A DNA stretch of 64,000 bases from Eledone cirrhosa (Eukaryota): NCBI GenBank assembly GCA_964016885.1, contig OZ024740.1:281356001-281420000 (forward strand), given 5' to 3'. Shown here piece by piece: positions 14,680 through 60,310 of this stretch. Within the stretch, counting starts at the first letter, position 1. Every line of letters begins with the position of its first letter. Position numbers and translations under genes: made by a program. The notes under the pieces are model-generated. The model was not told the DNA's origin. It ran no database searches and saw only the letters and a program-made list of their open reading frames with translations.

Positions 14680-17294
14680 ATACAAAATCGCGCCGAGTGG
14701 AACGGGCATCCGAGTCCCAAATCCAAAAAGCTTTGGGACATGTTTGGGCAGAAAAGGCCCGCATCAGACGTGGGCAGAAATATAGAACCGTGGACGTGTT
14801 CTTTGGAACACCACAGGAGGCCAGAGAGCACTCCATTGCCCCATTAAGAAGCGACGACTTTACACTCGTCCCAAGCTATTGTGGTCAGAGACTCGTGAAG
14901 ATCAGGGTGACTCACGTTCCACCGGCCATCGAAATTCCCTGGCTAATGGCTGCCGTCCTCGCCGACATCGAGGCCAACACCAAAATAATTGAAATATCAA
15001 AAGAAAAGCAGGAGAACTGATCCAGATCTGGGATGGAGCCCCTGATCCAAGCGGACCAAAAGAGCTTGAGGAAATCCCAGAGGTAATAGACCTCACTGAC
15101 GGCAGCCACCACACCGTAATCGTCGAGGGTGGAAGGCCAAGGTGTGTCGTTAGGAACCCACCTAAAGGCCTTCTGCCCTGAGGCTAAAAGGTTGAGGCCA
15201 CCTCTCTTAACCACCCCAGTGACTCAACCATCAACACGACCAGCAGCAGAAATCGCAGCAACAACAGTCACCAAAAAGCGAAACAGAAACAAACCCACAA
15301 CAAATTAAATTTGAACAACAACCAATTATTACACTACATCCGACACAACACCAGCATCACAGAAAAAGAATACACAACAACCCAAAAGTTCACACCACCT
15401 CCACACATACAAATCACTTGCATCACACAGAAAACGTACACGACATTAAAACAAAAATTCCCCAAAGACATCGGAGACTTCCGACAAGCACTCTCCAGGA
15501 GGATTTATAAGGACATCCTTCCGGAGGAGGCCACAAGCAGTGAAAAGGATGGAGAAATCATCCTTACTCTACGAGAAGTAAGGTAAGTGGTCTTTCCCAT
15601 CTTTTCCACTCCATTTCAACATGACTTCACTCAGAATAGGCAGCATAAATGCGCGTGGCTTGAGGTCGTCATGGAAGCAGGGCCACCTTCTCAACGACCT
15701 CAGGTCACTAAACATAGATGTAGTGGCCATCAGCGCGACCAGAATCTCCGAAGCACAGGCCTTCGCACCGATCTTCGGCGGCTACGATGTGTACGCATCT
15801 CCCAGCCGTCCTGGATCGGGAGGAGGAGTTGCTGTGCTTTTTCGGAGAGGTTTGGATCTCGCAATACGGGCCATCTTCCTGGACCCAGAAGGTAAGTTGA
15901 TGGTGCTGGACGTGACCAGCGGAGACGGGCAAACTTTCAGGCTAGTGGACGTTTATGCCCCGACAGGAGCAGGGCGGCCTAATTTCTTCCGGCGTCTGGA
16001 GACCTTTCTTGGAAAATCCCGTTCTTTAGTGTTAGTGGGCGAATGGAACGGGATCTTAGATGCACGCTGGGACTGTGTGGGATTAGCGGATAGGGGAGTA
16101 GGGTGCAAGAGCCTCACCAACCTGCTCAGGCGTTTTGAACTGTCTGACAGGTACGGATTGGATTACCCGAATGTGCCAATGTGGACTTCGACAAACCGCA
16201 TTGGGTCATCCAGATCATATCTATATAGAGTATTTTGTAGGGAAATAGATAGGTCTAGCATAGACGCGTCTATGCCCAGCTCGTCTCCTTTATGGAGCTG
16301 CAGTCCTGGGTTAAGCGAAGACCGAGAGGGAGCGCTTGGAGACTGGAATGTCTTGAGGCGCTCACAGCCCTCGACCAATCGAGCAATGTGATCGATAGAA
16401 ACTCCACCTTGGCATTATATACAGAATTAGTGGAGGAGAAGAGCGACGACGTACTTGGGGAAACTAAAGGCGTCAACGAAAATCAACTAGTCAATCTCAT
16501 CGGAAGAACTTTCGGGCCGAGGCCTATGGACAACTACCAGAAATCCCTGGCCTGGCAGTGCTACCGAGGAGCTTTGCCAGTTCGGGATAAACTCTACAGG
16601 CATGGAGGTGCCGTCAGTCGGACATGTCCGAGATGCACGCAGGGCGACGAAACCGTTCTGCACGCACTCGACCAGTGTCCGAGCATTGCTGACTTGTGGG
16701 TTTATGTCGAACAGCTGCTATCGCGTGTAGGACAGATCCAGCTATCAGCTGAGTCAATCGTGAGGATTTCCCCTTCCTCTTCCTTTAGCCGGGAAGGGCA
16801 GGAAGTTTTTATCTGTCTGGTGGCCATGGCGAAAGGGATAGTATGGTGGATACATTTGAAAGGGCTGAAGACGAGCACTTACGTCTTCGGTGATGCCCTG
16901 ATTAACTTTTTCAAATTTCATTTGAAAAGGAAAATCAGGGTAGAGAGGGAAGTGCTCTCTTCCCAGCATTTTGTTAAAAGATGGGTGAGCGAGGCAAGTA
17001 TGGCCCGAGTGAATGGGCCTACTCTGAGTATGTGTCTCTGTAAATTAAAGGTGGAAAACTGGGAGAGGGCACTTGCACTGGTGGTCAGGGTCACTGTGGC
17101 CTTTTACTGGGCTTTCTCCACGAATGTCCCTCGGAAGTCTCACCCCTATTGGGGAATTTTTCATTGTTATTTTTTGTTACATTCTCTGTTTTTGTTTTTT
17201 ACACGCAGAAATGACCATTTGTACCGTCCTGTATTGTCCTGCACTGTCCTTAATGTCTCCTTTATGTAAACGCTTGTGGTTAATAAAGAAAGCA

Positions 17295-17325
<31 letters not shown>
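14680..17325 (+). mobile_element. L1/Tx1-type non-LTR retrotransposon (subfamily B), 5'-truncated, with internal deletions including about 2 kb of RT
   Basis: ORF1 remnant, APE (MTSLRIGSINARGL...VLVGEWN), a jump at about 16262 to the C-terminal CCHC (CPRC..ETVLHALDQC), AATAAA and an (ATT)n tail. Confidence 0.93.
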
Positions 17326-20300
17326 GTTATTCCTTGAATCTCAGTCATTGATGTTAGTTAACTGGAAAGTCCGTTGGAATGAATATCAAGCCACTACCTG
17401 CAGCCTCAGATATTCAGGACGTATCGGACGGTTCTTGCTGTTCCCAGCAAGCATGCCTTTTGAAGCGTTCCAAAAAGCGTGAAGGGGCCGATTTTCTTTA
17501 ACCATCCCTGGAAACTTTTGGAGATAGTCCCCAGTGCGCCTATGACAATCGGGATCACTTTGACTTCATGGCAGTTCCAAATCCTTTTTACCTCCCACTT
17601 TAAGTCCTGGTATCGGTTAATTTTCTCCCTCTCCTTCTCTTGCACTCTCGTGTCGAATGGGCAGGCCACATCCACAATCAGACACGATCTTTTTTCTTTG
17701 TCCACAACCACCAGGTCAGGTTTATTGTGTTCCAGTTTCTTGTCCGTCTGTATCCTAAAATCCCACAGCACCTTCACCTGATCGTTCTCCATCACCGCCT
17801 CTGGCTTATGCTCATACCATTTCTCAGAATGTGGTAAATTGTTTACTTTGCACAGGTGCCAGTGGATCACCCTGCCCATCACATCATGTCTCCAGCCCTT
17901 ATAGTGGGTCTGGGCTAGGTGTTTACATTCGGACACAATGTGAGCCACAGTCTCCTCTCTCCACAGATCCTGCACAGTGGGCTAGCCTCCTCCTTGTAAA
18001 TATGGTGTTTCAACCACTTCGTTTTGAGGGCCTGCTCCTGCGCAGCCATTAACATTCCTTCTGTAGCCTTTTTAAGGTCTCCTCTTCTCAACCAGTTCCA
18101 TGTCTGTGGATCTCTAAATTCAGTTTTCTCAAAGAAGGTACTATGAAGGGATTTTTCCTGAAGGCTGCTCTTTCTCCTTGATGTTATTTCCTCCTTGGAC
18201 ATCTCCTGGCCAATTGTCCCCTCCGTCAGTACAGTTCTGAGCATTGGCTCCTTACTATCAGTCACGTATTTGTGTAGGTTGTTTTTCTCCATCTGAACAC
18301 AGTCCTCTATGCTGATAAGACCTCTTCCACCCTCAGATCTCCTTAGGTAGAGTCTATCGACATCACTCCTCTTGTGGTACATGTTGTAGATAGTCAATAG
18401 CTTCCTAGTCTTCCTATCCATTTCTTTTTGTTCAGCAACATTCCATCTCAGAATTCCTGCACTGTACCTAATAATAGACACAGCTCGGGAATTTACTGCG
18501 CTTAAGGCATTTCTGCTGTTCAGATGTGACTTCAACACGCTCCTTACTCTCCGAATGTATTCAGTTCTTAACAATTCCTTCATTTTTTTGTTCTTTATGC
18601 CATCAGCCTCCAGAACGCCCAAATACTTGTATCCTTCCTCAGAGTCAATTTCCTTTATCATCTCACCTGTGGGTATCTGGATTCCGTTACTTCTGCTCAA
18701 CCTACCCCTCCTCATCACAATTACTCCACACTTACTAATACCAAACTGCATACATATATCACTGCTGAAAATACGGACAGTGTCAACAAGCACATCCAAC
18801 TCCTTCTCACTCTTCCCGAAGAGCTTAAGATCGTCCATGAAGAGGAGGTGATTGATGGTAAGCCCTCCCTTTCCCAACCCGTATCCTGCTCTCACTTTTC
18901 GCAGTACACTGGTCAGGGGCATCAGGGCAATGACAAACAACAGAGGGGACAGGCTATCTCCCTGGAAGATACCTCTCTTGATCTTCACGCTTCCCAAGGA
19001 TTCTCCAGTTGATGTCAACTCTGTTTCCCAGGACCTCATACTCTTGCCCAGCAACTGTCTGATGTTATCTGCCACCCTGAAGATCTCCAGGCTTGTGGTG
19101 ATCCAGGAATGAGGCACCATGTCAAATGCCTTTCTGTAGTCTATCCATCCCATGGCAAGATCAGTGTGTCTCCTCCTGCAATTCCCCATTACCATCTTAT
19201 CAATAAGTAACTGGTCCTTTGTACCACGTGACTTCTTTCGGCATCCTTTCTGTTCGTCCGGTAACAAGTTGTTTGTGTGGAGGTGATGGTAGATTTCCTC
19301 AGACACGATGCTCGTCAACAGTTTCCACATTACGGACAGACATGTGATAGGTCTATAGTTGGTAACATCATTACCCTTGATTTGGTCTTTCATTATCAGA
19401 ACTGTGATACCTTTTGTCAACCACTCTGGTACCTCACCTGACATCAAGCAGTCATTGAACATGGTTGTCAGTTTCGGGTGGAGGGATGTTATATTTTTAA
19501 TCCAATACCCCTGCACACCATCTGGGACTGGTGATTTCCAGTTGGTTAGTTTTTTGGCCTGCCCCTTAAGAGTTTCAACTGTGATACTCAAATCAGTTTG
19601 TTGGTGTGCCTGCTCACCGATCTCCCTCTGTACTGTCTCAATCCACCCTGCCTGGTCATTATGTCTAAGATCTTGCTCCCATATTCCTCTCCAGAATGTT
19701 TTAGTTTGTTCCGCCTCAGGGATCAAGTCGTTGCCTCTTTCTTTCCCCTCAAGCTGTCCAAACAGCATCTTCTGGTTGTTGTCGAACATGCGGTTATGTT
19801 TATACTGACTGACTCTGTTCTCGTATCGCCTGATTTTTGCACTCTTTGCTACAATGCGTTGCTTCAGTTCCTCTATGATAATATTTAGCTTTTTCCTCCT
19901 AGTTTTGTATTTTATTTCCAGTCTATTTTTAGTGCCTATGTTTTTTAGTGTCCCATTCAGTAGTGACTCAAGCTTTCCAATGTCATTTCTCATTTCCCTG
20001 ATTTGACCACTCAGTCGTTTCTTCCACCAATGCTCTGCTCTTTCTTGTCTGTTGTTTTCTCTCGCTTTTATACCAAGTAGTTTCCTCACCGTATTTGCTG
20101 TTGCTTTGAGGATATTGTTGCACTGGTGAAGGCTCCTCGCCTCAAGGTATGGGATGACTTTGTTTACCTTAGCTGTTGTTTCTTTTAACTTTTTTCCTGT
20201 CTACAAATCTTAGGTTCATAGGTCTCCCACTATCATTGTTCAATTCATCTACCACTAAATTTAGGATGTCAACCGAATCTTGTCCTAGCCCGTCAACATT

Positions 20301-22103
20301 CATCTCCTCAGTGGCCGTATCTCTGTTCCAGGTATTATTTATCTCAGTATTCAGATCATTGTCTGCTTCGGGTGGTTCCTCCGTTCTCTCGACCTCTTCA
20401 CCTTCATTTCCCACTGGCTCGTTTGCCTGGCATACTCCACTCTCCATCTCCAAGCTAATCTCTCTGCTCAGTTCCTCCAGTTCCAGCTCGCTTATCCACC
20501 CATTAGTTCTTATTACCCGAGCCTGCCCGGCCAATTTTTGTTCATCTAATTTAAATAGACCAATCTCGTTCCAGATGTTATGCATCCGTCTCCTATAGCC
20601 CTTCTCCTTGGGGTTACTTTTCAGGTAACATTGCATAACAGTTCTATTCAATTCTTTCGTCCAGTTGGTTCTGGTCCCTTTCCTTCTTCTTCTTCCTCCG
20701 ACACCAGCAGTATTTGGTTGACAGCCAGGTTCCTGCTGCTGAGCCAGGGAGCACCTGTTGGGTGAGAGTCTGTCACATGACGTTCTAGTCTCCATTTCAC
20801 CGTTATTCGAACTGTTTAGGTTCGATATTTAAACACTCTTATCGAGGATTGGCGAATGTATGGTTACATACCCATCTGTGGATTCACCGTCTCCGGTGGT
20901 TGCGCCGCTCCGCTTGGCTCTTGTGTGGAATTATCACCACGCTGTAGACGAACACAAACAAACAAACAGAAAGAAAAAACCCCAAAAATGAATAAGCATA
21001 AGTTTCATTGTAATGTAGTGTTCGAATGTCTGACTTAGTTTTTCACTTCTCTTCTCTGTCCGTCCGCTTGTTTCTCTCTTCATTCTTATTTTCTTTACGT
21101 TTTTTTTTGTTTTTGTTTTTCTCTGTTTGTTTTTCTCTTTTTGTGCTGTTGTTGCTGTGCTGCTTTGGTTTTGATGTTTGTTTTTTCTTTTGAGTCTATC
21201 TATATATTTTGATGCCTTCCTCGTTTTTAGTAGGAATTCTATAATGTGGTGGCAGCAACTAGCAGGAAGCAATGGGAGAGAATAGCGGCGGTAGCGATAC
21301 TGAGACAGTGGTGGTGGTGATGTCGATACTGAGGCAGTGGTGGTGGTGATGTGATCGTATTACTGTAGTGATGGTGTTGTAGCGGTGGTAGCAATGAAGG
21401 AGTGGTGGCGGCGGTGATGGGATAGTGGTAGTAATGATGGCAGTGATGGTGGTGATGTGATCGTATTACTGTAGTGATGGTGTTGTAGCGGTGGTAGCAA
21501 TGAAGGAGTGGTGGCGGCGGTGATGGGATAGTGGTAGTAATGATGGATGAGCGGCGTTGTCGTTACTGATGTCCGTTCGGTGAATCTATGGGGTTAGTCG
21601 CGTACATGTTTGTGACATAAATTCCCTTAATGTTGGACTTAAACATTTTGTTAAAACTTGAGACAATAATACTAGTATCTATTATTATCATTATTATGTT
21701 GAGATTGGTTGTGGTGGTGGTGAAATTGCCGTTATCTGGCTGTTGCGTTTAGTGTACACAGAGAGGTGATGGGGTAGGTGGTGTATCTAGTTCTGGTATT
21801 GGTGAGATTGGTGTTGTTTGGCTGTTCTATACAGTGTAGACAGATGAGGGGAGGGTCTTCTTCTTCCAGTTATTGCCATTTTCTTTTTTGAATATACAAT
21901 GTACAATACAAAGTTGAATATTTGAATATTTGAGCCTATTAACAATATATTTTCGGTCCGAATTTTTTTTGGGCTCAAGCCGGATGCTTTACGTAGCATT
22001 TGTACTAAGAGTTGTTATTTCACAAATGATTTAAATATGTTAAAAATTCAAAACTTACGGGAGCGATTTCATGACCTTCTACCACCTCGTGTGTCTTCTT
22101 CCC
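17326..22103 (-). mobile_element. R4/Dong-type RLE non-LTR retrotransposon, full length, frameshifted (copy D1)
   Basis: N-terminal WTKELN domain, RT ([25 protein letters not shown]), CCHC and RLE (KPDLVVVD...IVDVACPFD...EKINRY), flanked by (TTA)n. Confidence 0.93.
17406..20795 (-). pseudogene. RT-RLE polyprotein of Dong copy D1 (two frameshifts)
   Basis: ORF pieces 20169-20795, 17915-20089 and 17406-17975. Confidence 0.9.
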
Positions 22104-22134
<31 letters not shown>

Positions 22135-25100
22135 GTTGTTATTCCTTGAATCTCAGTCATTGATGTTGGTTAACTGGAAAGTCCGTTGGAATGAATATCA
22201 AGCCACTACCTGCAGCCTCAGATATTCAGGACGTATCGGACGGTTCTTTCTGTTCCAAGCAAGCATGCCTTTTGAAGCGTTCCAAAAAGCGTGAAGGGGC
22301 CGATTTTCTTCAACCATCCCTGGAAACTTTTGGAGATAGTCCCCAGTGCGCCTATGACAATCGGGATCACTTTGACTTCATGGCAGTTCCAAATCCTTTT
22401 TACCTCCCACTTTAAGTCCTGGTATCGGTTAATTTTCTCCCTCTCCTTCTCTTGCACTCTCGTGTCGAATGGGCAGGCCACATCCACAATCAGACACGAT
22501 CTTTTTTCTTTGTCCACAACCACCAGGTCAGGTTTATTGTGTTCCAGTTTCTTGTCCGTCTGTATCCTAAAATCCCACAGCACCTTCACCTGATCGTTCT
22601 CCATCACCGCCTCTGGCTTATGCTCATACCATTTCTCAGAATGTGGTAAATTGTTTACTTTGCACAGGTGCCAGTGGATGACCCTGCCCATCACATCGTG
22701 TCTCCAGCCCTTATAGTGGGTCTGGGCTAGGTGTTTACACTCGGACACAATGCGAGCCACAGTCTCCTCTCTCTCTCCACAGATCCTGCACAGTGGGCTA
22801 GCCTCCTCCTTGTAGATATGGTGCTTCAACCACTTCGTTTTGAGGGCCTGCTCCTGCGCAGCCATTAGCATTCCTTCTGTAGCCTTTTTGAGGTCTCCTC
22901 TTCTCAACCAGTTCCATGTCTGTGGATCTCTAAATTCAGTTTTCTCAAAGAAGGTACTATGAAGGGATTTTCCCTTAAGGCTGCTCTTCCTCCTTGGACA
23001 TCCCCTGGCCTACTGTCCCCTCCTTCAGTACAGTTCTGAGCATTGGCTCCTTACTATAGGTCACGTATTTGTATAGCTTGTTTTTCTCCATCTGAACACA
23101 GTCCTCTATGCTGATAAGACCTCTTCCACCCTCAGATCTCCTTAGGTAGAGTCTATCGACATCACTCCTCTTGTGGAACATGTTGTAGATAGTCAATAGC
23201 TTCCTAGTCTTCCTATCCATTTCTTTTTGTTCAGCAACATTCCATCTCAGAATTCCCGCACTGTACCTAATAATAGACACAGCTCGGGAATTTACTGCGC
23301 TTATGGCATTTCTGCTGTTCAGATGTGACTTCAATACGCTCCTTACTCTCCGAATGTATTCAGTTCTTAACAATTCCTTCATTTTTTTGTTCTTTATGCC
23401 ATCAGCCTCCAGAACGCCCAAATACTTGTATCCTTCCTCAGAGTCAATTTCCTTTATCATCTCACCTGTTGGTATCTGGATCCCGTTACTTCTGCTCAAC
23501 CTACCCCTCTTCATCACAATGACTCCACATTTACCAATACCAAACTGCATACATATATCACTGCTGAAAATACGGACAGTGTCAACAAGCACATCCAACT
23601 CCTTCTCAATTTTCCCGAAGAGCTTAAGATCGTCCATGAAGAGGAGGTGATTGATGGTAAGCTCTCCCCTTCCCAACTTGTATCCTGCTCTCACTTTTCG
23701 CAGCATAATGGTCAAGGGCATCAGGGCAAGGACAAACAACAGAGGGGACAGGCTATCTCCCTGGAAGATACCTCTCTTGATCTTCACGCTTCCCAAGGAT
23801 ACTCCAGTTGATGTCAACTCTGTCTCCCAGGACCCCATACTCCTGCCTAGCAACTGTCTGATGTTATCTGCCACCCTGAAGATCTCCAGGCTTTTGGTGA
23901 TCCAGGAATGAGGCACCATGTCAAATGCCTTTCTGTAGTCTATCCATCCCATGGCAAGATCAGTGTGTCTCCTCCTGCAATTCCCCATTACCATCTTATC
24001 AATAAGTAACTGGTCCTTTGTACCACGTGACTTCTTTCGGCATCCTTTCTGTTCGTCCGGTAACAAGTTGTTTGTGTGGAGGTGATGTTAGATTTCCTCA
24101 GACACAATGCTCGTCAACAGTTTCCACATTACGGACAGACATGTGATAGGTCTATAGTTGGTAACATCATTACCCTTGATTCGGTCTTTCATTATCAGAA
24201 CTGTGGTACCTTTTGTCAACCACTCTGGCACCTCACCCGACACCAAGCAGTCATTGAACATGGCCGTCAGCTTCGGGTGGAGGGATGTTAAATGTTTAAT
24301 CCAATACCCCTGCACACCATCTGGGACTGGTGATTTCCAGTTGGTTAGTTTTTTGGCCTGCCCCTTAAGAGTTTCAACTGTGATACTCAAATCTGTTTGT
24401 TGTTGTGCCTGCTCACCGATCTCCCTCTGTACTGTCTCAATCCACCCTGCCTGGGCATTGTGTCTAACATCCTGCTCCCATATTCCTCTCCAGAATGTTT
24501 TAGTTTGCTCCGCCCCAGGGATCAAGTCGTTGCCTCTTTCTTTCCCCTCAAGCTGTCCAAACAGCATCTTCTGGTTGTTGTCGAACATGCGGTTCTGTTT
24601 ATACTGACTGACTCTGTTCTCGTATCGCCTGATTTTTGCACTCTTTGCTACAATGCGTTGCTTCAATTCCTCTATGATAATATTTAGCTTTTTCCTCCTA
24701 GTTTTGTATTTTATTTCCAGTCTATTTTTAGTGCCTATGTTTTTTAGTGTCCCATTCAGTAGTGACTCAAGCTTTCCTATGTCATTTCTCATTTCCCCGA
24801 TTTGCCCACTCAGTCGCTTCTTCCACCACGGCTCTGCTCTTTCTTGTCTGTTGTTTCCTCTCGCTTTTATACCAAGTAGTTTCCTCACCGTATTTGCTGT
24901 TGCTTTGAGGATATTGTTGCACTGGTGAAGGCTCCTCGCCTCAAGGTATGGGATGACTTTGTTTACCTTAGCTGTTGTTTCTTTTAACTTTTTCCTGTCT
25001 ACAAATCTTAGGTTCATAGGTCTCCCACTATCATTGTTCAATTCATCTACCACTAAATTTAGGATGTCAACCGAATCTTGTCCTAGCCCGTCAGCATTCA

Positions 25101-26651
25101 TCTCCTCAGTGGCCGTATCTCTGTGGCCGTATCTCAGTGGCCGTATCTCAGTATTCAGATCATTGTCTGATTCGGGTGGTTCCTCCGTTCTCAGGACCTC
25201 TTCACCTTCATTTCCCACTGGCTCGCTTGTCTGGCATACTACACCCGCCATCTCCAAGCCATTCTCTCTGCTCAGTTGCTCCAGTTCCATCTCGCTTATC
25301 CATCCATTAGTTCTTATTACCCGAGCCTGCCCGGCCAATTTTTGTTCATCTAATTTAAATAAACCAATCTCGTTCCAGATGTTATGCATCCGTCTCCTGT
25401 AGCCCCTCTCCTTGGGGTTACTTTTCAGGTAACATTGCATAACAGTTCTATTCAATTCTTTCGTCCAGTTGGTTCTGGCCCCTTTCCTTCTTCTCCTTCC
25501 TCCAACATCAGCAGTATTTGGTTGACAGTCAGGTTCCTGCTGCTGAGCCAGGGGGCACCTGTTGGGTGAGAGTCTGTCACATGACGTTCTAGTCTCCATT
25601 TCACCGTTATTCGAACTGTTTATGTTCGATATTTAAACACTCTTATCGAGGATTGGCGAATGTATGGTTACATATCCATCTGTGGATCCGCCATTCCACT
25701 TGGCCCTTGTGTGGCATTATCACCACGCTGTATACGAACACACATAAACAAACAAACACACAGGCAGAAAGGGCCCCAAAAATGAATAAGCATAAGTTTC
25801 ATTGTTCGAATGTCTGACTTAGTTTTTGTTTTTTAAGTTTTAGTTTTTCCCCCCTCTTCTCTGTCCGTCCGCCTGCTTCTCTCTTCATTCTTATTTTCTT
25901 TACGTTTTTTTGTTTTTTTGTTTTTTTGTTGTTTTTTTTGTTTTTCTCTGTTTGTTTTTCTCGTCTTTTGCTGTTGTTGCTGTGCTGCTTTGGTTTTGTT
26001 GTTTGTTTTTTCTTTTTTCTTTTGAGTCTATCTATATATTTTGATGCCTTCCTCTTTTTTAGCAGTAGGGATTCTATAATGTGGTGGCAGCAGCCAGCTA
26101 AAAGAAGAAGTGGGAGACTGGCGGCGGTAGCGATACTGAGACAGTGGTGGTGGTGATGTCGATACCGAGGCAGTGGTGGCGGTGATGTGACCGTATTACT
26201 GTAGTGATGGTGCTGTAGCGGTGGTAGCAGTGAAGGAGTGAAGGGGTGGTGGCGGCGGTGATGAGATAATGGTTGTAATGATGGCCGTAGTGAGCGGTGG
26301 TGGTTTAGTGTACACAGGTGACGGGGTGGGTGGTGTATCTAGTTTCTGGTGTTGGTGAGTTTGGCTGTTCTATATAGTGTAGACAGAGGAGGAGGGGGGG
26401 GGGGGGGTTCTTCTTCCATTTATAGCCATTTTCTTTTTTGGATATACAGTGTACAATACAAAGTTGAATATTTGAATATTTGAGCCTTATAACAATATAT
26501 TTTGGGTCCGAATTTTTTGGGGCTCAAGCCGGGTGCTTTACGTAGCATTTGTACTAAGAGTTGTTATTTCACAAATGATTTAAATATGTTAAAAATTCAA
26601 AACTTACGGGAGCGATTTCATGACCTCCGTCACCTCGTGCGTCTTCTTCCC
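22135..26651 (-). mobile_element. R4/Dong-type element, second tandem copy (D2)
   Basis: Close homolog of D1 with the same termini, bounded by (TTA)n at 22104-22134 and 26652-26735. Confidence 0.93.
22218..25599 (-). pseudogene. RT-RLE polyprotein of Dong copy D2 (premature stop at 24088, deletion near 22988)
   Basis: ORF pieces 24088-25599, 22975-24066 and 22218-22907. Confidence 0.9.
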
Positions 26652-26735
<84 letters not shown>

Positions 26736-27390
26736 CAACTGTAGTCTTCGATATATAACGAAGAGCGCTACCTTTGTAAGCTCTATGCTAACATATGCCA
26801 AAATTATTGATTATTTAATAAATGGTAACTCTATCTTTGTTTTATCGTTCCCATGGCTATTATTATCATTGGAATGCAGTAGTTATCCACAGAGATCTTT
26901 GATACACAAACAGTGTGGAATAACACTTACTTAAATAACATCACCTTTAAGTTTATTGTTATTCCATAGTCTCGGCAATCACAATTGCGTGATTTATATT
27001 AGAATTGGTACACAGGAACATTTTGATTTAGCTTCTTCTATCCTTTGAAGTAATCAGGAATTTAAGTTGGATAACTCTTTAAAATGTTTTTATTTTTGTT
27101 GTATGCATTCTGATGACATAAGCTGTTGGCGTGTAACAGTAGATCAATAAAGATTTAAACAAAAGTTTATGACAGTAAATCTTATACTGATGACAAGAAC
27201 CTACTTCTAAGGTATACTTTAGAGCGTAGAATCAATATAGATAAAATCTCCTCATATTACTTCGCTCTTCGATGTCGAGATTTTAGGCTTATACATAAAC
27301 ATATGTTTATTAGTGTGTTTGTGTATGTATGTGTGTGCTTGCGGATGGGCTGGTGTACGTATGTTGACTTTATTATTTGTTTTAAACGAA

Positions 27391-28778: not shown

Positions 28779-28893
<115 letters not shown>

Positions 28894-28894
28894 C

Positions 28895-28926
<32 letters not shown>

Positions 28927-28949
28927 GTTTCCGTAGGCTACAGAGCCAT

Positions 28950-29103
28950 TTAGTTATGTAATAAACAACATAAAAAAAAATATTTCAGTTACCAAAGGTT
29001 TCACGAAGAGAGAAGAGCTTGACACAGACGTCAGTGACAAGCTCGTCTGTCTTCGTGTGAAACCTTTGGTAAATGAAATAATTGTCTTATGCTATTTATT
29101 ACA

Positions 29104-29110
<7 letters not shown>
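28950..29110. repeat. Inverted repeat of a PLE pseudo-LTR 3' end (family of 2740-2790)
   Basis: gaaacctttggtaaatgaaataattgtcttatg...ttacataac and its reverse complement upstream. Confidence 0.7.
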
Positions 29111-29178
<68 letters not shown>

Positions 29179-29284
29179 ATGTAATAAATAGCATAAGACA
29201 ATTATATATATATATATATATATATAAAGAAAAAAAGATGAAATCGAAAATGCAACTGGAGCCTTATTTTAAAAATATATATAT

Positions 29285-34932: not shown

Positions 34933-34992
<60 letters not shown>

Positions 34993-34997
<5 letters not shown>

Positions 34998-36283
34998 GCG
35001 GTTGCCGGTCCGGCAGAAATTAGAAATTGGAATAAATGCTCTGAAATAGCGATATATATGTGAATATAGACATAGAATATTCGAAAATATTCTGTATGTT
35101 TATAATAAACATTTTGAAGACCTAATCGCTATAGAATAGAATACGTCACGTATTACAATTAGATTCTCGATAAAAGCAAGGGAAGTAAATCTACGCGTTT
35201 CATTCTCGTTAGAAATCGTCAGGACTACATATCCAGTGCTTTTATCGAGAATGACACAGCTTTATCGCTATTTCAGAGCATTTATTCCAATTTCTAATTT
35301 CTGCCGGACCGGCAACCGCTCTTTCAAACCAGTTCCTGTACACAGCTAAGTATTCTATAAGTCTCTAGCTGTGTCATTCTCGATAAAAGCACTGGATATG
35401 TAGTCCTGACGATTTCTAACGAGAATGAAACGCGTAGATTTACTTCCCTTGCTTTTATCGAGAATCTAATTGTAATACGTGACGTATTCTATTCTATAGC
35501 GATTAGGTCTTCAAAATGTTTATTATAAACATACAGAATATTTTCGAATATTCTATGTCTATATTCACATATATATCGCTATTTCAGAGCATTTATTCCA
35601 ATTTCTAATTTCTGCCGGACCGGCAACCGCTCTTTCAAACCAGTTCCTGTACACAGCTAAGTATTCTATAAGTCTCTAGCTGTGTCATTCTCGATAAAAG
35701 CACTGGATATGTAGTCCTGACGATTTCTAACGAGAATGAAACGCGTAGATTTACTTCCCTTGCTTTTATCGAGAATCTAATTGTAATACGTGACGTATTC
35801 TATTCTATAGCGATTAGGTCTTCAAAATGTTTATTATAAACATACAGAATATTTTCGAATATTCTATGTCTATATTCACATATATATCGCTATTTCAGAG
35901 CATTTATTCCAATTTCTAATTTCTGCCGGACCGGCAACCGCTCTTTCAAACCAGTTCCTGTACACAGCTAAGTATTCTATAAGTCTCTAGCTGTGTCATT
36001 CTCGATAAAAGCACTGGATATGTAGTCCTGACGATTTCTAACGAGAATGAAACGCGTAGATTTACTTCCCTTGCTTTTATCGAGAATCTAATTGTAATAC
36101 GTGACGTATTCTATTCTATAGCGATTAGGTCTTCAAAATGTTTATTATAAACATACAGAATATTTTCGAATATTCTATGTCTATATTCACATATATATCG
36201 CTATTTCAGAGCATTTATTCCAATTTCTAATTTCTGCCGGACCGGCAACCGCTCTTTCAAACCAGTTCCTGTACACAGCTAAG

Positions 36284-36287
<4 letters not shown>
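34993..36287 (+). mobile_element. Retrozyme-like / non-autonomous PLE array: one inverted partial unit plus 3.3 tandem 311-bp units, within (TA)n
   Basis: atcgctatttcagagc recurs at 35264, 35575, 35886 and 36197, and 34993-35261 is inverted. Each full unit has a hammerhead. Confidence 0.9.
35402..35440 (+). ncRNA. Type I hammerhead in the array unit (also 35713-35751 and 36024-36062; inverted copy 35188-35226)
   Basis: agtc-CTGACGA-t ttct aacg agaa t-GAAA-cgcg-TA-gatt, closed by a 16-bp helix attctcgataaaagca/tgcttttatcgagaat. Confidence 0.85.
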
Positions 36288-36338
<51 letters not shown>

Positions 36339-43262: not shown

Positions 43263-43473
43263 TTAATGGGCTTTATCCACGAGAGACTCTTGGAGATGTC
43301 CCCACTATTGGGGAATTTTCCTTTGTTTCATTTTTTTTTTTGTTACATTCTTTGTTTTTATTTTATTTATTTGTTTTTACACGCAGAAACGCCCAGTTGT
43401 ACCGTCCTGTGCTGTCCTTAATGTTATGTTTTGTGTCAACCCTTATAGATAATAAAGAAAACATTATTATTAT
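43263..43473 (+). mobile_element. Tx1-type 3'UTR-only stub with (ATT)n tail
   Basis: gggctttatccacg...ccccactattggggaatttt...acacgcagaaa...gtaccgtcctg...aataaagaaa matches the Tx1 3'UTR. Confidence 0.8.
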
Positions 43474-44823
43474 TGTTACTCTTGGAGTGTCAGTCATTTA
43501 GGTTTGTTAAAATGAATATCAAGCCGCTACCTGCAGCCTCAGATATTCAGGACATATCGGCGGGTTCATGCTGTTCCCAGCAAGCATGCCTTTTGAAGTG
43601 TTCCAAAAAAGGGGGCTGGACAAATGTTCTTTAACCATCCCTGAAAACTCCTATGACAATCGGGACGACATTGATCTCAGGACAGTCCCAAATCCTTTTT
43701 AACTCCCACTTTAAATCCTGGTATCGGCTAATTTTCTCCTTCTACTTCTCCTTTTCTACAATCAGACACGATATTTTTTCCTTGTCCTATTGTGTTCTAA
43801 TTTGTCCGTCTGTATCCTGAAATCTCGTTTTCTATCACCCACTCTGCATTATGCTCATACCACTTCTCAGAATGTGGTAAATTGTTTAGTTTGCGTAATG
43901 TCATATCATATCTCCAGCCTTTATAGTGGGTCTGGGCTAGGTGTTTACACTCGGATACGATGTGATCCACAGTCTCCACAGATCCTACACAGTGAGCTGG
44001 CCTCCTCCTTGTCAATATTGTGTTTCACTCACTTCGTTCTGAGGGCTAGCTCTTGTGCAACCATTAGCATTTCTTCTGTAGCTTTTTTAAGGTCTCCTCT
44101 TTTTAAACAGTTCCATGTCTGTGGATCTCTGAATTCCGTTTTCTTAAAGGTGCTATGAAGGGATTTTTCAGGAAGGTTGCTCTTTCTCTTTGTTGTTATT
44201 TCCTCCTTTGGGCATCTCCTGGGCTATTCTCTTCTCCTTCAGTACAACTTTGAGCATTGGCTCCCTACTCTGAGACACATATTTGTGCAGGTTATTTTTC
44301 TCCATCTGAACACAGTCCTCTATGTTGATAAGACCTCTTCTACCTTCAGATCGCTTTAAGTAGAGTTTGTCAACATCACTTGTGGAACATGTTGTAGATA
44401 GTCAATAGCTTCCTAGTCTTTCTATCCATTTCTTTTTGTTCAGCAGCATTCCATTTCAGAATTCCCGTACTGTACCTAATAATAGACACAATTCGGAAAT
44501 TTACTGCACTTATGACATTCCTACTATTTAGATATGATTTTTGTATGTTCCTTACTGTCCTTATGTATTCAGATCTGATCAATTCCTTCATTTTATTGTT
44601 CTTGGTGTCATCTGCTTCCAGAACACCCAAATATTTGCATCCCTATTCAGTGTCGATTTCCCTTATCATCTCACCTGTTGGTACCTGGATGCCGTTGCTG
44701 CTGCTCATTTTACCCCTCTTCATCACTAGGACTCCACATTTATTAACAGCAAATTCCATAGATATATCATTGTTAACAAGTACATCCAACTCCTTCTCAC
44801 TCTTCCCAAAGTGTTTTAGATCG
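43474..44823 (-). mobile_element. 5'-truncated, degraded Dong-type copy (D3)
   Basis: GVLEAD...[18 protein letters not shown] and ETVDHIVSECKHLA; (TTA)n on both sides. Confidence 0.9.
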
Positions 44824-44840
44824 TTATTATTATTATTATT

Positions 44841-48565: not shown

Positions 48566-48778
48566 GAATGCCATGGTTGACGGAGGCTCGGCTCTGTAAG
48601 GTATAGTAATTTTTAACCGTTAAAACAATTGTAAATTGTTTAAAACTTGAACCAAATTGTTGATAAAGACACCCTCCTCCTCGTGAGAGGGGTCTTTCTG
48701 TCCGTTATTTGGCCCTTCGGGGTTAAATAACCAGTTATTGGGGTTTTGTACCCAAAATTTCATTTTAAACAAAAAAAC

Positions 48779-50698
48779 ATGGCTACCAAAAAGAAATTTC
48801 ATACGTCACTCCCACTCATTCCGTCTTCTTCTTCCTCAATCATCACTACAGCAGAGAGAAGATTGTCTCTCTCCCTCCCTTCTTTAAATGTGTCTCTCTC
48901 CCTCCCTTCTCTTTCGCAAGCGACGAAAGAAAAGAAAAGTCTCGTGCAAAGCGTGCAAGGTTTCTCCACGACGACGACGACAGCGACGAAACAGGTGTGC
49001 GGGAAATACGAAAACCCAGTTCATTCGTCTGACGTCAGGAATAATAGCAGTAGCAGCCGTAATAACAACAGCAACAGTGACAATGAAAACAACAGTAGCA
49101 GCCGCAACAGCATCACCAGCAGCATAAACAACAACAGCATTAGCAGCAGCAACACCAACAACAACCACAGCAACAGCGGCGGAGGCAGTAGTCGTAGTAC
49201 CTGCAGCAACAAAAGTACCAGCAGCTCTGACGACAACAACAACAGCAGAGAAAAACCAATCTCATTTGCAGGTATTGCGAAAAACTTGGAAACAATCCTC
49301 ATAACAAATGAGGAATTAGAGGAAGCGAAGAAGATGGTGACAAAGAACGGACACCGAGCAATCTGCAAGGCAGCGAAACATTTTTTCGAAACCCAAGAGC
49401 ACTGTACGGTCACGTACCGTACAGTAAGTACAAAATCCCGTAGGGTGGAAAGAGCCACAGAGGCCCAAATACAAAAAGCCTTGGGGTCTGTGTGGCAGAG
49501 GAAAACGCACATCACCCAAGGCAAAAAATACGCCACCGTAGACGTACTTTTTGCCACACCCCAGGAGGCAAAGGCCCAATCAGTAGTGACCCTAAGGAGC
49601 GAGGAAATGGTGTTGGTGCCCTCCTACTGCGGGCAAAAAATTGTGAGGGTCAAACTGACCCACGTCCCCCCCGGAATGACCCCTTCTTGGCTGGCCGCGT
49701 CTGTCCTCGTCGGAATCGAGGACAAAACAACTGTACTGCAAGTACAGAAAAAAGTAAGAGAAGATTGGGTCGGCTCCTCCATTGAGATGCTAATCCAAAC
49801 CAACCAGGAGTGCATCGAAGCTATCCCGGATGTGATAGACTTCGATAACGGCACTCAACTGCCCATAAGTGTTGAGGGCAAACGCCCGAAATGCTTTCGC
49901 TGTGGATCGAAGACTCACCTCAGGGCCTTCTGCAACGAGAAGACCCTGAGAAAGGAGAAAACCCCCCTCCTTCCGAATCCGGCTCCACGGCTACCAGCAA
50001 CAGGACAAGCGGCAACCAGGAACGATAGGTCCGTGGCACCCATACCCACTCCACGGAAATCAAAGACAGCAGCAGCAGTGGAAATATTAACAACAACAAC
50101 AGCAATACCAAATGCAGCTGCAACAGAGACTCCAGTGCAAACATCACCAACAACAACAAGTGAAAGAGTGGAGCTGGTACCCCTCCCCGACCTTACAGAA
50201 TCAGACATGGATGTGTGAGGTGGGAGAGGGATGGCAAAAGGTCGCAAGAAGGCACAAACGCAGAAGCAGCGCATCGTCGCCTTTGAAAAGGGAGGAAAGA
50301 AATGAGAAAAGGGTAAAGTCTACTGCAAAGAGACCCACAGCAGCAACACCACCAACACCATCACCACCCACACCAGCACCACCATCACCACCGGCGACAA
50401 CCCCACCGCCAACAACACCTTCAACACCACCACCACAAGCACCAACATCGCAAACACAACAACAAAACACACACACCCAGCAACAACGACAAGAAAATAG
50501 CAGAACCACACCCCACCCCCAGAAAAACAAATGCACGGCAATAAACACACACAACAAGAAACTAATGACTTACATAATTGAACACACAGACATTTCAAAA
50601 CAGGACTACATAATACCAGCACCAATCAAAACGCCAACTAACATAAGACTGCTAAAAATAGCACAGAAACAATACACAAACATTAAAACGAAATTCCC
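48779..50698 (+). pseudogene. ORF1 (gag-like, CCHC knuckle) of copy A1, frameshifted at about 50212
   Basis: CFRCGSKTHLRAFC; one extra base relative to A2. Confidence 0.85.
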
Positions 50699-53600
50699 GA
50701 TGTGTACGCATCTCCCAGCCGTCCTGGATCGGGTGGAGGAGTTGCTGTGCTTTTTCGGAGAGGTTTGGATCTCGCCATACGGGCCATCTTCCTGGACCCA
50801 GAGGGTAAGCTGGTGGTGCTGGACGTGACCAGTGGAGACGGGCAAGCTTTCAGGCTAGTGGCCGTCTATGCCCCGACAGGAGCAGGGCGGCCTGATTTCT
50901 TCCGGCGTCTGGAGACCTTTCTTGGAACGTCCCGCTCTTTAGTGTTAGTGGGCGACTGGAACGGGATCTTAGATGCACGCTGGGACTGTGTGGGATTAGC
51001 GGATAGGGGTGGAGGGTGCAAGAGCCTCACCAACCTGCTCAGGCGTTTTGAACTGTCTGACAGGTACCGATTGGATTTCCCGAATGTGCCAATGTGGACT
51101 TGGACAAACCGCATAGGGTCATCCAGATCATATCTAGATAGAGTATTTTGTAGGGAAATAGATAGGTCTAGCATAGGCTGTCCACAATTCAAGATAGTCA
51201 GCTACACGGACCACAAATTCGTGATCTGTGTGCTTGACTTAGATAGGCTTCATAGACGAGGACCCGGCTACTGGAAGCTAAACGCGTCCTTACCAGCGCG
51301 CAAGGCCTACAGAGACCGGATTAGCGAACTAGTTAAGCGGGCGTTGACGCGGGCCATCGTCAACAACAAGTGGTGGTTTGCTCTGAAAAGAGCGATTAGA
51401 ATAGAATCGATTAGGTTTAGTAAGGCTTTAGCAATAGAGAAAAATAGAGCAGAGGGAGAACTAGTTAGAAAATTAGACGAGGCGCTTAGCAAAGGCATTG
51501 CGACCGACGTGCTTGCGGCGAAATTGGCCCTTGACCAATTCTTCAATGCAAAGCACGAAGGCTGCGTTGTCAGAGCTAGGGTGCGTGCTCTCAGACACGA
51601 GGGGACGAAAGCCGTTCAATGGGCCCGAGTGGCGGAGGCGCGTCGTGGCAACAAAGCCACGATCCAGTCTTTGGTGGACCACGACGGGCGCATGCTACTC
51701 GATCCCGGGCAAATGTGTGAAGCTTTTCAGCGACACTTCGCTCAGCTGTTCGGGGGCAGCGGGGGGCCGGGTAGAGGGATGGACTTTAGTGTCTACCTCG
51801 ACGGACTGCCGCGGCTCTCGGCCACTGAGGCGAAGTGTTGCGAAAAGCCGATAACAGCCGCTGAAGTACGGGAGGCAATGACTGGCTGCACAAGGGGTAA
51901 ATCGCCTGGTTTGGATGGTCTGCCCTATGAACTTTACGTACAGATGCCAGACTTGTTCGGAGGCCTCTTGGCGGACGTCTACTGCAACTGGCAACAGAAC
52001 GGGAGAATTCCCAGTTCTGTGAGCCGAGGAGCGGTGGCACTGCTGAGAAAGGATCCGAACAAGGGGGATAACATAGACAATTTCCGGCCCATAACTCTGC
52101 TAAACACAGAGTTTAAGATTTTGGCCAAGGTGCTAGCAAAGAGGTTGGCGCTTGTCGTTGGTGGTCTGGTGGGAGAGGCGCAGACATGCGCCATTCCCGA
52201 CAGATCCATCCACGACAACCTCCACCTCATGCGATACATCGTAGAGAGGGTAGCTAGGGAACCTGGCACGGGTGGGTCCTTGATCAATTTAGATCAGTCG
52301 AAAGCTTTCGATAGGGTCGACCATCGTTACCTAGCGGCAGTCCTGAGGGCGGCTGGCTTTGGGCCCGTCTTCAGAGGCTGGATCGCTGCCATGCACAGCG
52401 ACATCTGCTCTGTGGTGAGAGTGAACGGTCACCTGTCGGAACCGTTCAACATCATGCGCTCGGTCCGCCAAGGATGTCCCCTCTCGTCCCTCTTGTACGT
52501 ATTGACTCTCGAGCCATTACTGCACAAACTGGAGACGTTGAGGGGAGTCCCGCGCGAACTAGGATGCGGAAGATCCGTGTCAGCATATGCGGACGATGTC
52601 ACCGTAGTGGTGTCGAACGCCAAACACATCGAGGCGATCGGCACTACACTAAGAGAATACGAAGCGGTGACAGGAGCAATGATCAACCAGGAAAAGTCAG
52701 TGGGCCTGCAGCTCGGCACCTGGAGAGGCAGGTCCATGCCGTCCAACAGCGTCGTCGGGCGCTGGACGGACGGACCGGTTAAATTGCTAGGGGTCTGGTT
52801 CGGTCCGGACCTCCAGACGGACAAAAACTGGGACGAGGTGACGAGCAGGGTGGCTTCTCTCACCCAGAAATGGGCGGAGAGGAAGCTATCCCTGAAAGGT
52901 CGAGCGGAGGTGGCTAACGCGTACATCGCGTCTGTCATCTGCTACCGCCTAACCGTCGTACCTTGTCCTAAGCCTCGCCTGACTGCGCTGGAGCGTTTGC
53001 TCTTTCGCTTTTTGTGGAAGGGACGTGCTCCGATGGTCAGGCGGTCCATCTGTTGTCAACACCCGCTACGTGGAGGGCTGGGCATGCCGTGGCTGATGAT
53101 GCGCAGGCACGCGCTCAGGCTACGACATCTCCACCTCTTCCTCGACGGTGATCAGGTGTGGTCGCCGTTTGCTAGACGCGTTTTTCCCCAGCTCGTTTCC
53201 TTGACGGAGCTGCAGTCCTGGGTCAAGCGAAGACCGAGAGGGAGCGCCTGGAGACTGGAATGTCTTCAGGCGCTCACAGCCCTCGACCAATCGGGCAATG
53301 TGATCGGTGGAAACTCCACCTCGGCGTTCTATAGAGGATTAGTGGAGGGGAAGAGCGACGACGTACTTGGGGAAACTCTAGGCGTCGACGAAAATCAACT
53401 AGCCAATCTCTTCGGAAGAACTTTCGGGCCAGGGCCTATGGACAACTTCCAGAAATCTCTGGCCTGGCAGTGCTACCGAGGAGCCTTGCCAGTTCGGGAT
53501 AAACTCTACAGGCATGGAGGTGCCGTCAGTCGGGCATGTCCGAGATGCGCGCAGGGCGACGAAACCGTCCTGCACGCACTCGTCCAGTGTCTGAAAATTG

Positions 53601-53953
53601 CTGACTTGTGGGTTTATGTCGAACACCTGCTGTCGCGTTTAGGACGGATCCAGCTATCATCTGAGTCTATCGTGAGGATTGCCCCGCCCTCCTCCTTTAG
53701 CCGGGAAGGGCAGGCAGTTTTTATCTGTCTGGTGGCCATGGCGAAAGAGATAGTATGGTGGACACGTTTGAAAGGGCTGAAGACGAGCACTTACCTCTTC
53801 GGTGATGCTCTGATTGACTTTTTCAAATTTCATTTGAAAAGGAAAATCAGAGTAGAGAAGGAAGTGCTCTCTTCCCAGCATTTTGTTGAAAGATGGGTGA
53901 GAGAAGCAAGAATGGCCCGAGTGAATGGGCCGACTCTGAGTATATATCTGTAA
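50699..53953 (+). pseudogene. ORF2 (APE-RT-CCHC) of copy A1 lacking the N-terminal part of the endonuclease
   Basis: Open 1083-aa frame, but the first about 55 codons including the INARG and SETR motifs are missing. Confidence 0.85.
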
Positions 53954-54213
53954 ACTAAAGGTGGAAAACTGGGAGAGGGCACTTGCCTTGGTGGTCAGGG
54001 TCATTGTGGCTTTTTACTGGGCTTTCTCCACAAATGTCCCTCCGAAGTCTCCCCCCTATTGGGGAATTTTTCATTGTTATTTTCATTGTTATTTTTGTTA
54101 CATCCTCTGTTTTTGTTTTTTTACACGCAGAAATGCCCATTTGTACCGTCCTGCATTGTCCTGCACTGTCCTTAATGTCTACTTTATGTAAACCCTTGTG
54201 GTTAATAAAGAAA

Positions 54214-54254
<41 letters not shown>

Positions 54255-54467
54255 GAATGCCATGGTTGACGGAGGCTCGGCTCTGTAAGGTATAGTAATT
54301 TTTAACCGTTAAAACAATTGTAAATTGTTTAAAACTTGAACCAAATTGTTGATAAAGACACCCTCCTCCTCGTGAGAGGGGTCTTTCTGTCCGTTATTTG
54401 GCCCTTCGGGGTTAAATAACCAGTTATTGGGGTTTTGTAGCCAAAATTTCATTTTAAACAAAAAAAC

Positions 54468-56540
54468 ATGGCTACCAAAAAGAAATTTCATACGTCACTC
54501 CCACTCATTCCGTCTTCTTCTTCCTCAATCATCACTACAGCAGAGAGAAGATTGTCTCTCTCCCTCCCTTCTTTAAATGTGTCTCTCTCCCTCCCTTCTC
54601 TTTCGCAAGTGACGAAAGAAAAGAAAAGTCTCGTGCAAAGCGTGCAAGGTTTCTCCACGACGACGACGACAGCGACGAAACAGGTGTGCGGGAAATACGA
54701 AAACCCAGTTCATTCGTCTGACGTCAGGAATAATAGCAGTAGCAGCCGTAATAACAACTGCAACAGTGACAATGAAAACAACAGTAGCAGCCGCAACAGC
54801 ATCACCAGCAGCATAAACAACAACAGCATTAGCAGCAACAGCGGCGGAGGCAGTAGTCGTAGTACCTGCAGCAACAACAAAAGTACCAGCAGCTCTGACG
54901 ACAACAACAACAGCAGAGAAAAACCAATCTCATTTGCAGGTATTGCGAAAAACTTGGAAACAATCCTCATAACAAATGAGGAATTAGAGGAAGCGAAGAA
55001 GATGGTGACAAAGAACGGACACCGAGCAATCTGCAAGGCAGCGGAAACATTTTTCAAAACCCAAGAGCACTGTACGGTCACGTACCGTACAGTAAGTACA
55101 AAATCCCGTAGGGTGGAAAGAGCCACAGAGGCCCAAATACAAAAAGCCTTGGGGTCTGTGTGGCAGCGGAAAACGCACATCACCCGAGGCAAAAAATATG
55201 CCACCGTAGACGTACTTTTTGCCACACCCCAGGAGGCAAAGGCCCAATCAGTAGTGACCCTAAGGAGCGAGGAAATGGTGTTGGTGCCCTCCTACTGCGG
55301 GCAAAAAATTGTGAGGGTCAAACTGACCCACGTCCCCCCCGGAATGACCCCTTCTTGGCTGGCCGCGTCTGTCCTAATCGGAATCGAGGACAAAACAACT
55401 GTACTGCAAGTACAGAAAAAAGTAAGAGAAGATTGGGTCGGCTCCTCCATTGAGATGCTAATCCAAACCAACCAGGAGTGCATCGAAGCTATCCCGGATG
55501 TGATAGACTTCGATAACGGCACTCAACTGCCCATAAGTGTTGAGGGCAAACGCCCGAAATGCTTTCGCTGTGGATCGAAGACTCACCTCAGGGCCTTCTG
55601 CAACGAGAAGACCCTGAGAAAGGAGAAAACCCCCCTCCTTCCGAATCCGGCTCCACGGCTACCAGCAACAGGACAAGCGGCAACCAGGAACGATAGGTCC
55701 GTGGCACCCATACCCACGCCACGGAAATCAAAAACAGCAGCAGCAGTGGAAATATTAACAACAACAACAGCAATACCAAATGCAGCTGCAACAGAGACTC
55801 CAGTGCAAACATCACCAACAACAACAAGTGAAAGAGTGGAGCTGGTACCCCTCCCCGACCTCACAGAATCAGACATGGAGTGTGAGGTGGGAGAGGGATG
55901 GCAAAAGGTCGCAAGAAGGCACAAACGCAGAAGCAGCGCATCGTCGCCTTTGAAAAGGGAGGAAAGAAATGAGAAAAGGGTAAAGTCTACTGCAAAGAGA
56001 CCCACAGCAGCAACAACACCAACACCATCACCACCCACACTAGCACCACCATCACCACCGGCGACAACCCCACCGCCAACAACACCTTCAACACCACCAC
56101 CACAAGCACCAACATCGCAAACACAACAACAAAACACACACACCCAGCAACAACGACAAGAAAATAGCAGAACCACACCCCACCCCCAGAAAAACAAATG
56201 CACGGCAATAAATACACACAACAAGAAACTAATGACTTACATAATTGAACACACAGACATTTCACAACAGGACTACATAATACCAGCACCAATCAAAACG
56301 CCAACTAACATAAGACTGCTAAAAATAGCACAGAAACAATACACAAACATTAAAACGAAATTCCCCAACGCAGTTGGTGATTTCAGGGACCTAGGAGGAA
56401 CCATCAATCGAAGAGTATACTCAGACATTCTCTTAGAAGAGCCGACGACCAGCCGAAGGGACGATTCAACGGTCCCTTCACCAGACGATCAAGTGAAAAG
56501 GGATGTAAAAACCATCCCTCCTCTACCAAAAGTACGGTAA
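54468..56540 (+). CDS. ORF1 nucleic-acid-binding protein (low-complexity N-terminus, probable RRM-like core, CCHC knuckle, Pro/Thr-rich tail), 690 aa
   Basis: Open frame, CFRCGSKTHLRAFC, and position upstream of APE-RT. Confidence 0.9.
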   Translation: MATKKKFHTSLPLIPSSSSSIITTAERRLSLSLPSLNVSLSLPSLSQVTKEKKSLVQSVQGFSTTTTTATKQVCGKYENPVHSSDVRNNSSSSRNNNCNSDNENNSSSRNSITSSINNNSISSNSGGGSSRSTCSNNKSTSSSDDNNNSREKPISFAGIAKNLETILITNEELEEAKKMVTKNGHRAICKAAETFFKTQEHCTVTYRTVSTKSRRVERATEAQIQKALGSVWQRKTHITRGKKYATVDVLFATPQEAKAQSVVTLRSEEMVLVPSYCGQKIVRVKLTHVPPGMTPSWLAASVLIGIEDKTTVLQVQKKVREDWVGSSIEMLIQTNQECIEAIPDVIDFDNGTQLPISVEGKRPKCFRCGSKTHLRAFCNEKTLRKEKTPLLPNPAPRLPATGQAATRNDRSVAPIPTPRKSKTAAAVEILTTTTAIPNAAATETPVQTSPTTTSERVELVPLPDLTESDMECEVGEGWQKVARRHKRRSSASSPLKREERNEKRVKSTAKRPTAATTPTPSPPTLAPPSPPATTPPPTTPSTPPPQAPTSQTQQQNTHTQQQRQENSRTTPHPQKNKCTAINTHNKKLMTYIIEHTDISQQDYIIPAPIKTPTNIRLLKIAQKQYTNIKTKFPNAVGDFRDLGGTINRRVYSDILLEEPTTSRRDDSTVPSPDDQVKRDVKTIPPLPKVR

Positions 56541-56575
56541 GTGGTCTTTCCCATCTTTTCCACTCTATTTTAAAC

Positions 56576-60260: not shown

Positions 60261-60310
<50 letters not shown>

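Follow-up and report, generated by a model that had tools for sequence, protein, structure and literature searches.

The window analysed here, 64,000 nucleotides (nt) of the Eledone cirrhosa genome (assembly GCA_964016885.1, contig OZ024740.1, positions 281,356,001 to 281,420,000), carries two full-length copies of an R4/Dong-like non-LTR retrotransposon (one that lacks long terminal repeats, LTRs). D1 (17332-22103) and D2 (22144-26651) were delimited by self-comparison of the window and lie head-to-tail on the minus strand. Read in the sense of the element, they differ in their reverse transcriptase (RT) region by many more A/G than C/T exchanges. The bias is real but modest; it belongs to the RNA phase of the element and is carried by shared variants of an ordinary family of long interspersed nuclear elements (LINEs). 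The explanation favoured here, plausible without being secure, is that most of the excess was inherited as subfamily variants, which entered active source elements as A>G errors of reverse transcription.

The stretch of D1 under study, 18841-19500 on the minus strand, belongs to the RT domain and aligns without gaps over 660 nt to D2 23640-24299. The 17 A/G differences, 3 C/T differences and 7 transversions counted by hand in the original prediction were recovered exactly, the amino acid pairs that it listed are present in the alignment, and G is found in either copy (12 sites in D2 and 5 in D1). All seven sites described as G in D2 at 24182-24271 exist, but one of them, 24182/19383, is a G>A loss in D1; it lies at a CpG and has G in 99.5% of the aligned depth. 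At the other six, spread over 43 nt (24229-24271, minus strand) and followed by two transversions, D2 carries sense G against A in D1.

Corrected for base composition, the A/G:C/T ratio of 18841-19500 is 4.48 (p=0.011; sites at most 3 nt from a gap were omitted from the D1/D2 counts). This level is reached by 9.3% of 2000 simulated scans (p=0.093), and the most extreme segment of the scan is 18444-19103 (17/18, scan p=0.015). Across the open reading frame (ORF) the counts are 48:16 (corrected ratio 1.88, p=0.029), and the parts of the ORF outside the stretch have a corrected ratio of 1.3 (14:7 and 17:7, not significant). The 5' untranslated region (UTR) has 15:18 (corrected 0.72) and the entire element 63:35 (corrected 1.21, p=0.41). 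The earlier proposal that a purine-rich coding strand explains only part of the skew thus holds for the stretch and the ORF, where the excess survives composition correction, but not for the whole element, where it is gone. Decay of CpG sites was rejected as a cause because their removal hardly alters the excess (13:2, p=0.018 in the stretch; 41:13, p=0.048 in the ORF). The 18841-19500 stretch is a local peak of a region-limited, modest A/G bias.

The fading of the signal beyond the stretch, and the scan-corrected value, speak for an account with no special mutation process, in which the pattern is the joint product of a purine-rich coding strand, of purifying selection lenient towards A/G replacements, and of the post-hoc choice of the stretch. 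This account is improbable when the other copies of the family are considered. Contigs of two public runs, X1 (6433 contigs) and X4 (82 contigs), were aligned to D1 18300-19800, a 1.5-kb segment chosen around the skewed stretch that includes 27 A/G and 4 C/T D1/D2 sites; a variant site is one that differs at at least 5% of depth, the summed contig depth not being a copy number. In element sense the family-wide A/G:C/T counts are 64:17 in X1 (2.6-fold corrected, p=0.0003) and 44:10 in X4 (3.0-fold, p=0.0008). Both remain at p<=0.002 under a crude selection-adjusted expectation of about 60-61% A/G, which argues against selection and composition as the whole cause. So does the comparison relative to D1 in X1, with A>G at 27/485 sites and T>C at 2/339 (p=6e-5).

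The direction of change was read from the X1 majority, with tallies of polarised and private changes that cover 40 of the 103 variant rows. The 29 polarised transitions are mostly A>G (17) and not G>A (4), with 6 T>C and 2 C>T, and APOBEC-type sense G>A editing was rejected on this count. Rates per base are 17/485 for A>G and 6/339 for T>C (p=0.20), and 23 of the 29 changes go from A/T to G/C (p=0.008). Eight of the 17 A/G sites of the 660-nt stretch are among the listed rows; seven polarise as A>G, and the eighth is the G>A change at the 24182/19383 CpG. In D1 four derived sense A>G changes lie at 18864-18907 (minus strand), including an AAG/GGG doublet at 18879-18880, with A shares in the family of 0.88, 0.92, 0.99 and 0.72.

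A third copy, D3 (43470-44824, minus strand), also detected by self-comparison, is old, 5'-truncated and about 75% identical. It had been cited as support for a derived G at several sites; this support falls away, for D3 covers D1 only up to 18834 and tests no site of 18841-19500. Within its own range it polarises 10 A>G, 4 T>C, 3 G>A and 2 C>T, with a third base at 3 sites, and the rates of A>G (10/417) and T>C (4/276) do not differ significantly (p=0.58). D3 matches the family majority at 5/5 testable shared transition sites where D1 and D2 agree. Its own decay is symmetric (G>A 48/340, C>T 26/198; ratio 1.0-1.1). Asymmetry imposed by host-gene transcription or replication is accordingly not favoured, D3 being on the same strand.

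The bias resides in what the copies share. Fifteen changes are confined to D1 or common to D1 and D2 alone (at least 98.8% other allele); they comprise 2 A>G, 3 G>A, 1 T>C, 1 C>T and 8 transversions, and D1's private changes are unskewed. Listed sites where D1 and D2 agree and the family differs give 9:5, as composition alone predicts, a figure that suits the account with no special process. D2 has about one private change, or none, against each X4 record, and the X4 records differ from D1 about as often as D2 does. Two X4 records of equal depth at 19400-19525 have 1 and 9 differences from D1, the count for D2 being 9. It is likely, from difference counts rather than letters, that D2 matches the dominant high-copy haplotype of X4, so that its G-rich tract would be an inherited subfamily trait and not a private event. 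Since the skew is found in shared variants and not in D1's private changes, it probably arises in active source elements rather than by decay after insertion. Tandem DNA duplication was rejected as the main relation between D1 and D2 because most of the differences listed are family alleles.

Parts of the element are present in 20 of the 24 listed public runs, under sixteen organism labels (share 0.10-0.71). Four of these runs were aligned to D1 18300-19800, and the two that consist of raw reads contributed 0 reads there. Many of the runs likely carry traces of foreign DNA rather than represent hosts; X4 has no more than 82 contigs, and one Hi-C run has 0 aligned reads.

Errors of the element's own RT, added at each retrotransposition cycle, would account for this distribution. 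A first-strand dC in place of dT and a second-strand dG in place of dA would both read as sense A>G, and a first-strand dG in place of dA would supply the weaker T>C class. For an R2 RT and the L1 RT, PMC11331410 reports thymine as the most substituted base (47% and 40%) and cytosine as the most misincorporated. PMC6009661, from the same line of methods, equates dT>dC in complementary DNA (cDNA) with rA>rG; among the second-strand errors of retroviral RTs, its largest class is dA>dG. With errors of the R2/L1 type, A>G changes should be scattered and outnumber T>C, and the sequence should drift from A/T to G/C, as seen in the polarised transitions. Purifying selection would then remove C/T replacements more than A/G replacements, and the 660-nt stretch would by chance be the place of greatest difference between two subfamily haplotypes. 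Between D1 and D2 the ratio of replacement to synonymous change (dN/dS) stands at 0.54 among A/G changes against 0.25 among C/T changes, and 40% of A/G replacements, compared with 15% of C/T replacements, are also seen in homologues. Synonymous A/G changes (20/572) exceed synonymous C/T changes (12/555) only slightly, a point on the side of the account with no special process.

Several observations weigh against RT error. The X1 and X4 variants are partly the same sites as the D1/D2 differences, and the independent remainder ranges from 37:14 (p=0.064) to 52:13 (p=0.0006); its lower bound also suits the view that nothing special needs explaining. Ten related families (45-65% identical, 13-15 members of the 15 listed in each) were scored for protein-level replacements and have no skew: 282 A/G-type to 126 C/T-type changes, a ratio of 1.03 after opportunity correction. 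Their shared variants give 49:23 (0.98), with shared A>G over T>C at 1.41. An RT bias should be general, and its absence from these families counts against RT error; exposed to selection of a like kind, they count equally against selection as the cause. Neither AA>GG doublets nor the A>G cluster of another LINE copy described below is accounted for by errors that arise independently at about 1e-4. The strand convention is not stated outright in the available text of PMC11331410, and a literature search for the error spectrum of an R4 RT found none. In the review PMC9099904, recent vertebrate non-LTR copies are said to mutate mainly by C>T and G>A.

D1/D2 replacements (28:4) differ from those of the related families at p=0.027 (all variants) and p=0.052 (shared variants), D1/D2 having been counted at the DNA level so that the two are not strictly comparable. 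Polarising through homologues of 45-65% identity is noisy (13 A>G and 11 G>A among replacements) and carries little weight. Eight non-LINE repeat pairs in the window give 21 A/G and 22 C/T differences, in a small set without a sense strand.

The strongest signal between D1 and D2 is symmetric between strands: at 74 of 98 transitions D1 has A/T and D2 has G/C (p=4e-7), with equal strand rates (48/1481 for A, 26/899 for T). Such a trend, with the strand skew reduced to noise, would be expected if copies exchanged sequence by GC-biased gene conversion or if G/C were selected. This is very unlikely to be the explanation, as neither process can yield 64:17 between strands and the D1/D2 direction mixes decay of D1 with gains in the D2 lineage. 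One site does hint at exchange. At 19527/24326, within 99 nt of complete identity, both D1 and D2 carry an allele that the family almost lacks (in X1, 99.996% have another), which gives Val where 120/120 homologues have Gly. Either the tandem copies were converted by one another, or they may descend from one rare parent.

Errors of assembly or base calling in repeats could likewise create A/G differences, many of the changes lying in purine runs. For D1 and D2 this is largely refuted, and it is hardly credible as a general cause: the D2 alleles occur at high depth in independent contigs, with 8 of the 17 sites of the stretch listed and record counts that match. D1/D2 and the T3 copy introduced next are themselves known from the assembly only.

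A more substantial competitor, though a doubtful one, is that ADAR edits the element RNA in duplexes with antisense copies, that RT reads inosine as C, and that the resulting A>G changes integrate and in some cases found new subfamilies. The clearest case for it comes from a second LINE family of the window, on the plus strand, with AP (apurinic/apyrimidinic) endonuclease, RT and zf-RVT domains. It is called Tx1-like after one database name at 32% identity, as a label only; the nearest named relative of its ORF2 (69%) comes from Argonauta hians, which agrees with an octopod setting. Copy T3 (54255-60262) has five private A>G changes within 24 nt of its RT domain, at 58158-58181 (plus strand), where T2 and T1, and T4 where present, have A. 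Its 16 private changes include 7 A>G and 1 T>C (p=0.037), and a run of five A>G within 24 nt occurred in 0/20000 permutations. The cluster includes two AA>GG doublets in a copy otherwise 99% identical to T2, none of its five sites has a 5' G, and all alter residues of a conserved RT stretch. This is the best editing-like feature in the window, a single event found post hoc and based on the assembly only. The surrounding RNA is predicted to fold strongly (z=-8.1), with the five adenosines predicted to be unpaired inside it, which speaks against their editing within this fold.

The Dong-like family was originally proposed as an independent second family with an editing-like signature. Its skew does recur in other copies, but the Tx1-like family has no general strand skew: T2/T3 gives 15:15 and T3/T4 25:18, the A/G:C/T ratios in eight comparisons range from 0.6 to 1.4 with none significant, and one A>G cluster occurs in one copy only.

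Sequence context gives a divided answer on ADAR. Depletion of 5' G is a shared, conserved ADAR motif according to PMC5625713, and coleoid editing is directed to repeats according to PMC9068888. A 5' G precedes 2 of 17 polarised Dong-like A>G sites, the background being 0.326 (p=0.05), and 3 of 24 when T3 is included (p=0.021); with 11 further D2 sites added the count is 5/28 (p=0.066), and the 48 unpolarised A/G sites of the ORF show no depletion (15/48, p=0.54). AA>GG doublets, found at 18879-18880 in D1, at 24264-24265 in D2 and twice in T3, fit editing, as does the excess of D1/D2 replacements over the related families. Neither the six derived T>C changes nor the 5' UTR pattern (13 A/G and 15 T/C toward D2) can come from editing of sense RNA. 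No unusual local fold is predicted for the D1 RNA, whose z values lie between -1.8 and +1.9 over 17 windows. The D2 run of six G in about 43-45 nt is significant by position (p=0.005) but not by label shuffling (0.068 and 0.17), and it is shared with other copies; the lack of skew in D1's private changes points the same way. In PMC5224506, human L1 RNA was not found to be edited by ADAR1 in HeLa cells.

RT copying errors with selection remain the favoured reading for the Dong-like family. (TAA)n tracts adjoin the D1 3' end (17295-17331) and separate the D2 3' end from the D1 5' end (22104-22143), and a (TAA)28 tract lies at the D2 5' end (26652-26735). The D1 ORF extends from about 20828 to 17406, with frameshifts near 20195 and 17961. 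D2 has a stop codon at 24088, a 17-nt deletion at 22988/22989 and a His>Arg change in its zinc knuckle at 22753. The Dong-like ORF matches the RVT_1 domain (E=2.8e-24 and 9.5e-17), and among proteins of solved structure R2 comes nearest to it (E=6e-25), followed by L1. Its carboxyl terminus has what we take to be a CCHC knuckle and a PD..D [PD-(D/E)xK] endonuclease motif; simple patterns for the two were found in 109/120 and 108/120 homologues, respectively. None of 6 Dong-like ORF pieces matched Exo_endo_phos, the AP endonuclease domain, and a scan of 20800-26800 with Rfam models for a 5' ribozyme like that of hepatitis delta virus gave no match at E<=1. The closest database relatives are 60-71% identical and mostly without a name; none belongs to the same family, the top matches reaching 65% and 71%. 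D1 and D2 fit an R4/Dong-like LINE by domains, motifs and TAA flanks rather than by a tree.

The RNA of the Tx1-like ORF2 is predicted to be strongly structured at 51700-52900 (plus strand), within the RT coding region (z from -4.3 to -8.6 in 4 of 6 200-nt windows, 12 shuffles each), in contrast to the Dong-like RNA. T2 (48566-50697 joined to 50698-54254) has about 370 nt fewer than T3 at the ORF1-ORF2 junction, while T0 and T4 carry internal deletions of their own and differ in their ORF1-type 5' part. The two unrelated LINE families both have TAA/ATT tracts at their ends or insertion points and are piled up in arrays at 14684-26735 and 43261-64000, with three Dong-like copies and no fewer than six Tx1-like pieces. 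Long elements that are palindromic or made of inverted repeats adjoin TA microsatellites at 1-631, 28888-29205 and 34953-36326, one of them with 3.3 tandem units of 311 nt at 99% identity.

Dong is an element of the R4 lineage with TAA upstream, according to PMC3774820. Like Dong of Bombyx mori, the present family has one long ORF with RT, a C-terminal knuckle, a PD..D motif, no AP endonuclease and TAA flanks; it differs in its very high copy number and in having no Rfam ribozyme match. The RT errors of R2 (Fasciolopsis buski) and human L1 in PMC11331410 resemble the Dong-like pattern in that transitions dominate and that, in cDNA, thymine is the base most often replaced and cytosine the one most often misinserted, likely the equivalent of sense A>G. 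They were recorded in vitro for enzymes other than that of R4, as scattered changes at 1-2e-4 per base from which neither doublets nor clusters are predicted. APOBEC-edited retroelement copies, described in PMC4866542 and PMC2873906, also fix strand-biased changes of a single type in the genome. Their changes are clusters of sense G>A, in LTR elements of vertebrates, at about 10-fold over C>T, and are reported absent from 19 invertebrates; the Dong-like family has A>G polarity and a 2-3-fold excess in a LINE. ADAR hyper-editing of repeat transcripts, as described in PMC5625713 and PMC9068888, is akin in producing A>G clusters with few 5' G, and it is abundant in octopus and squid repeats. It is reported in RNA, unlike the genomic variants found here, which come without a local duplex and with a borderline motif.

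If RT errors are the source, the Dong-like family would be an in-genome readout of the error spectrum of an R4-type enzyme and a caution for the dating of repeats, a result of modest interest. It is possible, though doubtful, that in the octopod germline ADAR-edited LINE RNA was reverse-transcribed, leaving A>G clusters such as T3 58158-58181 and D1 18864-18907, and that edited transcripts founded subfamilies. In a literature search that lacked most subscription papers, no publication was listed that describes LINE copies edited by ADAR and fixed in the genome of a cephalopod, and the role of coleoid editing on mobilising retrotransposons is called unexplored in PMC9068888. If ADAR contributes, RNA editing would have left a heritable record in the DNA of these copies, and they would serve as evidence from the germline for an action of coleoid editing on retrotransposons that mobilise. 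RNA editing would then steer the sequence evolution of active retrotransposon lineages.

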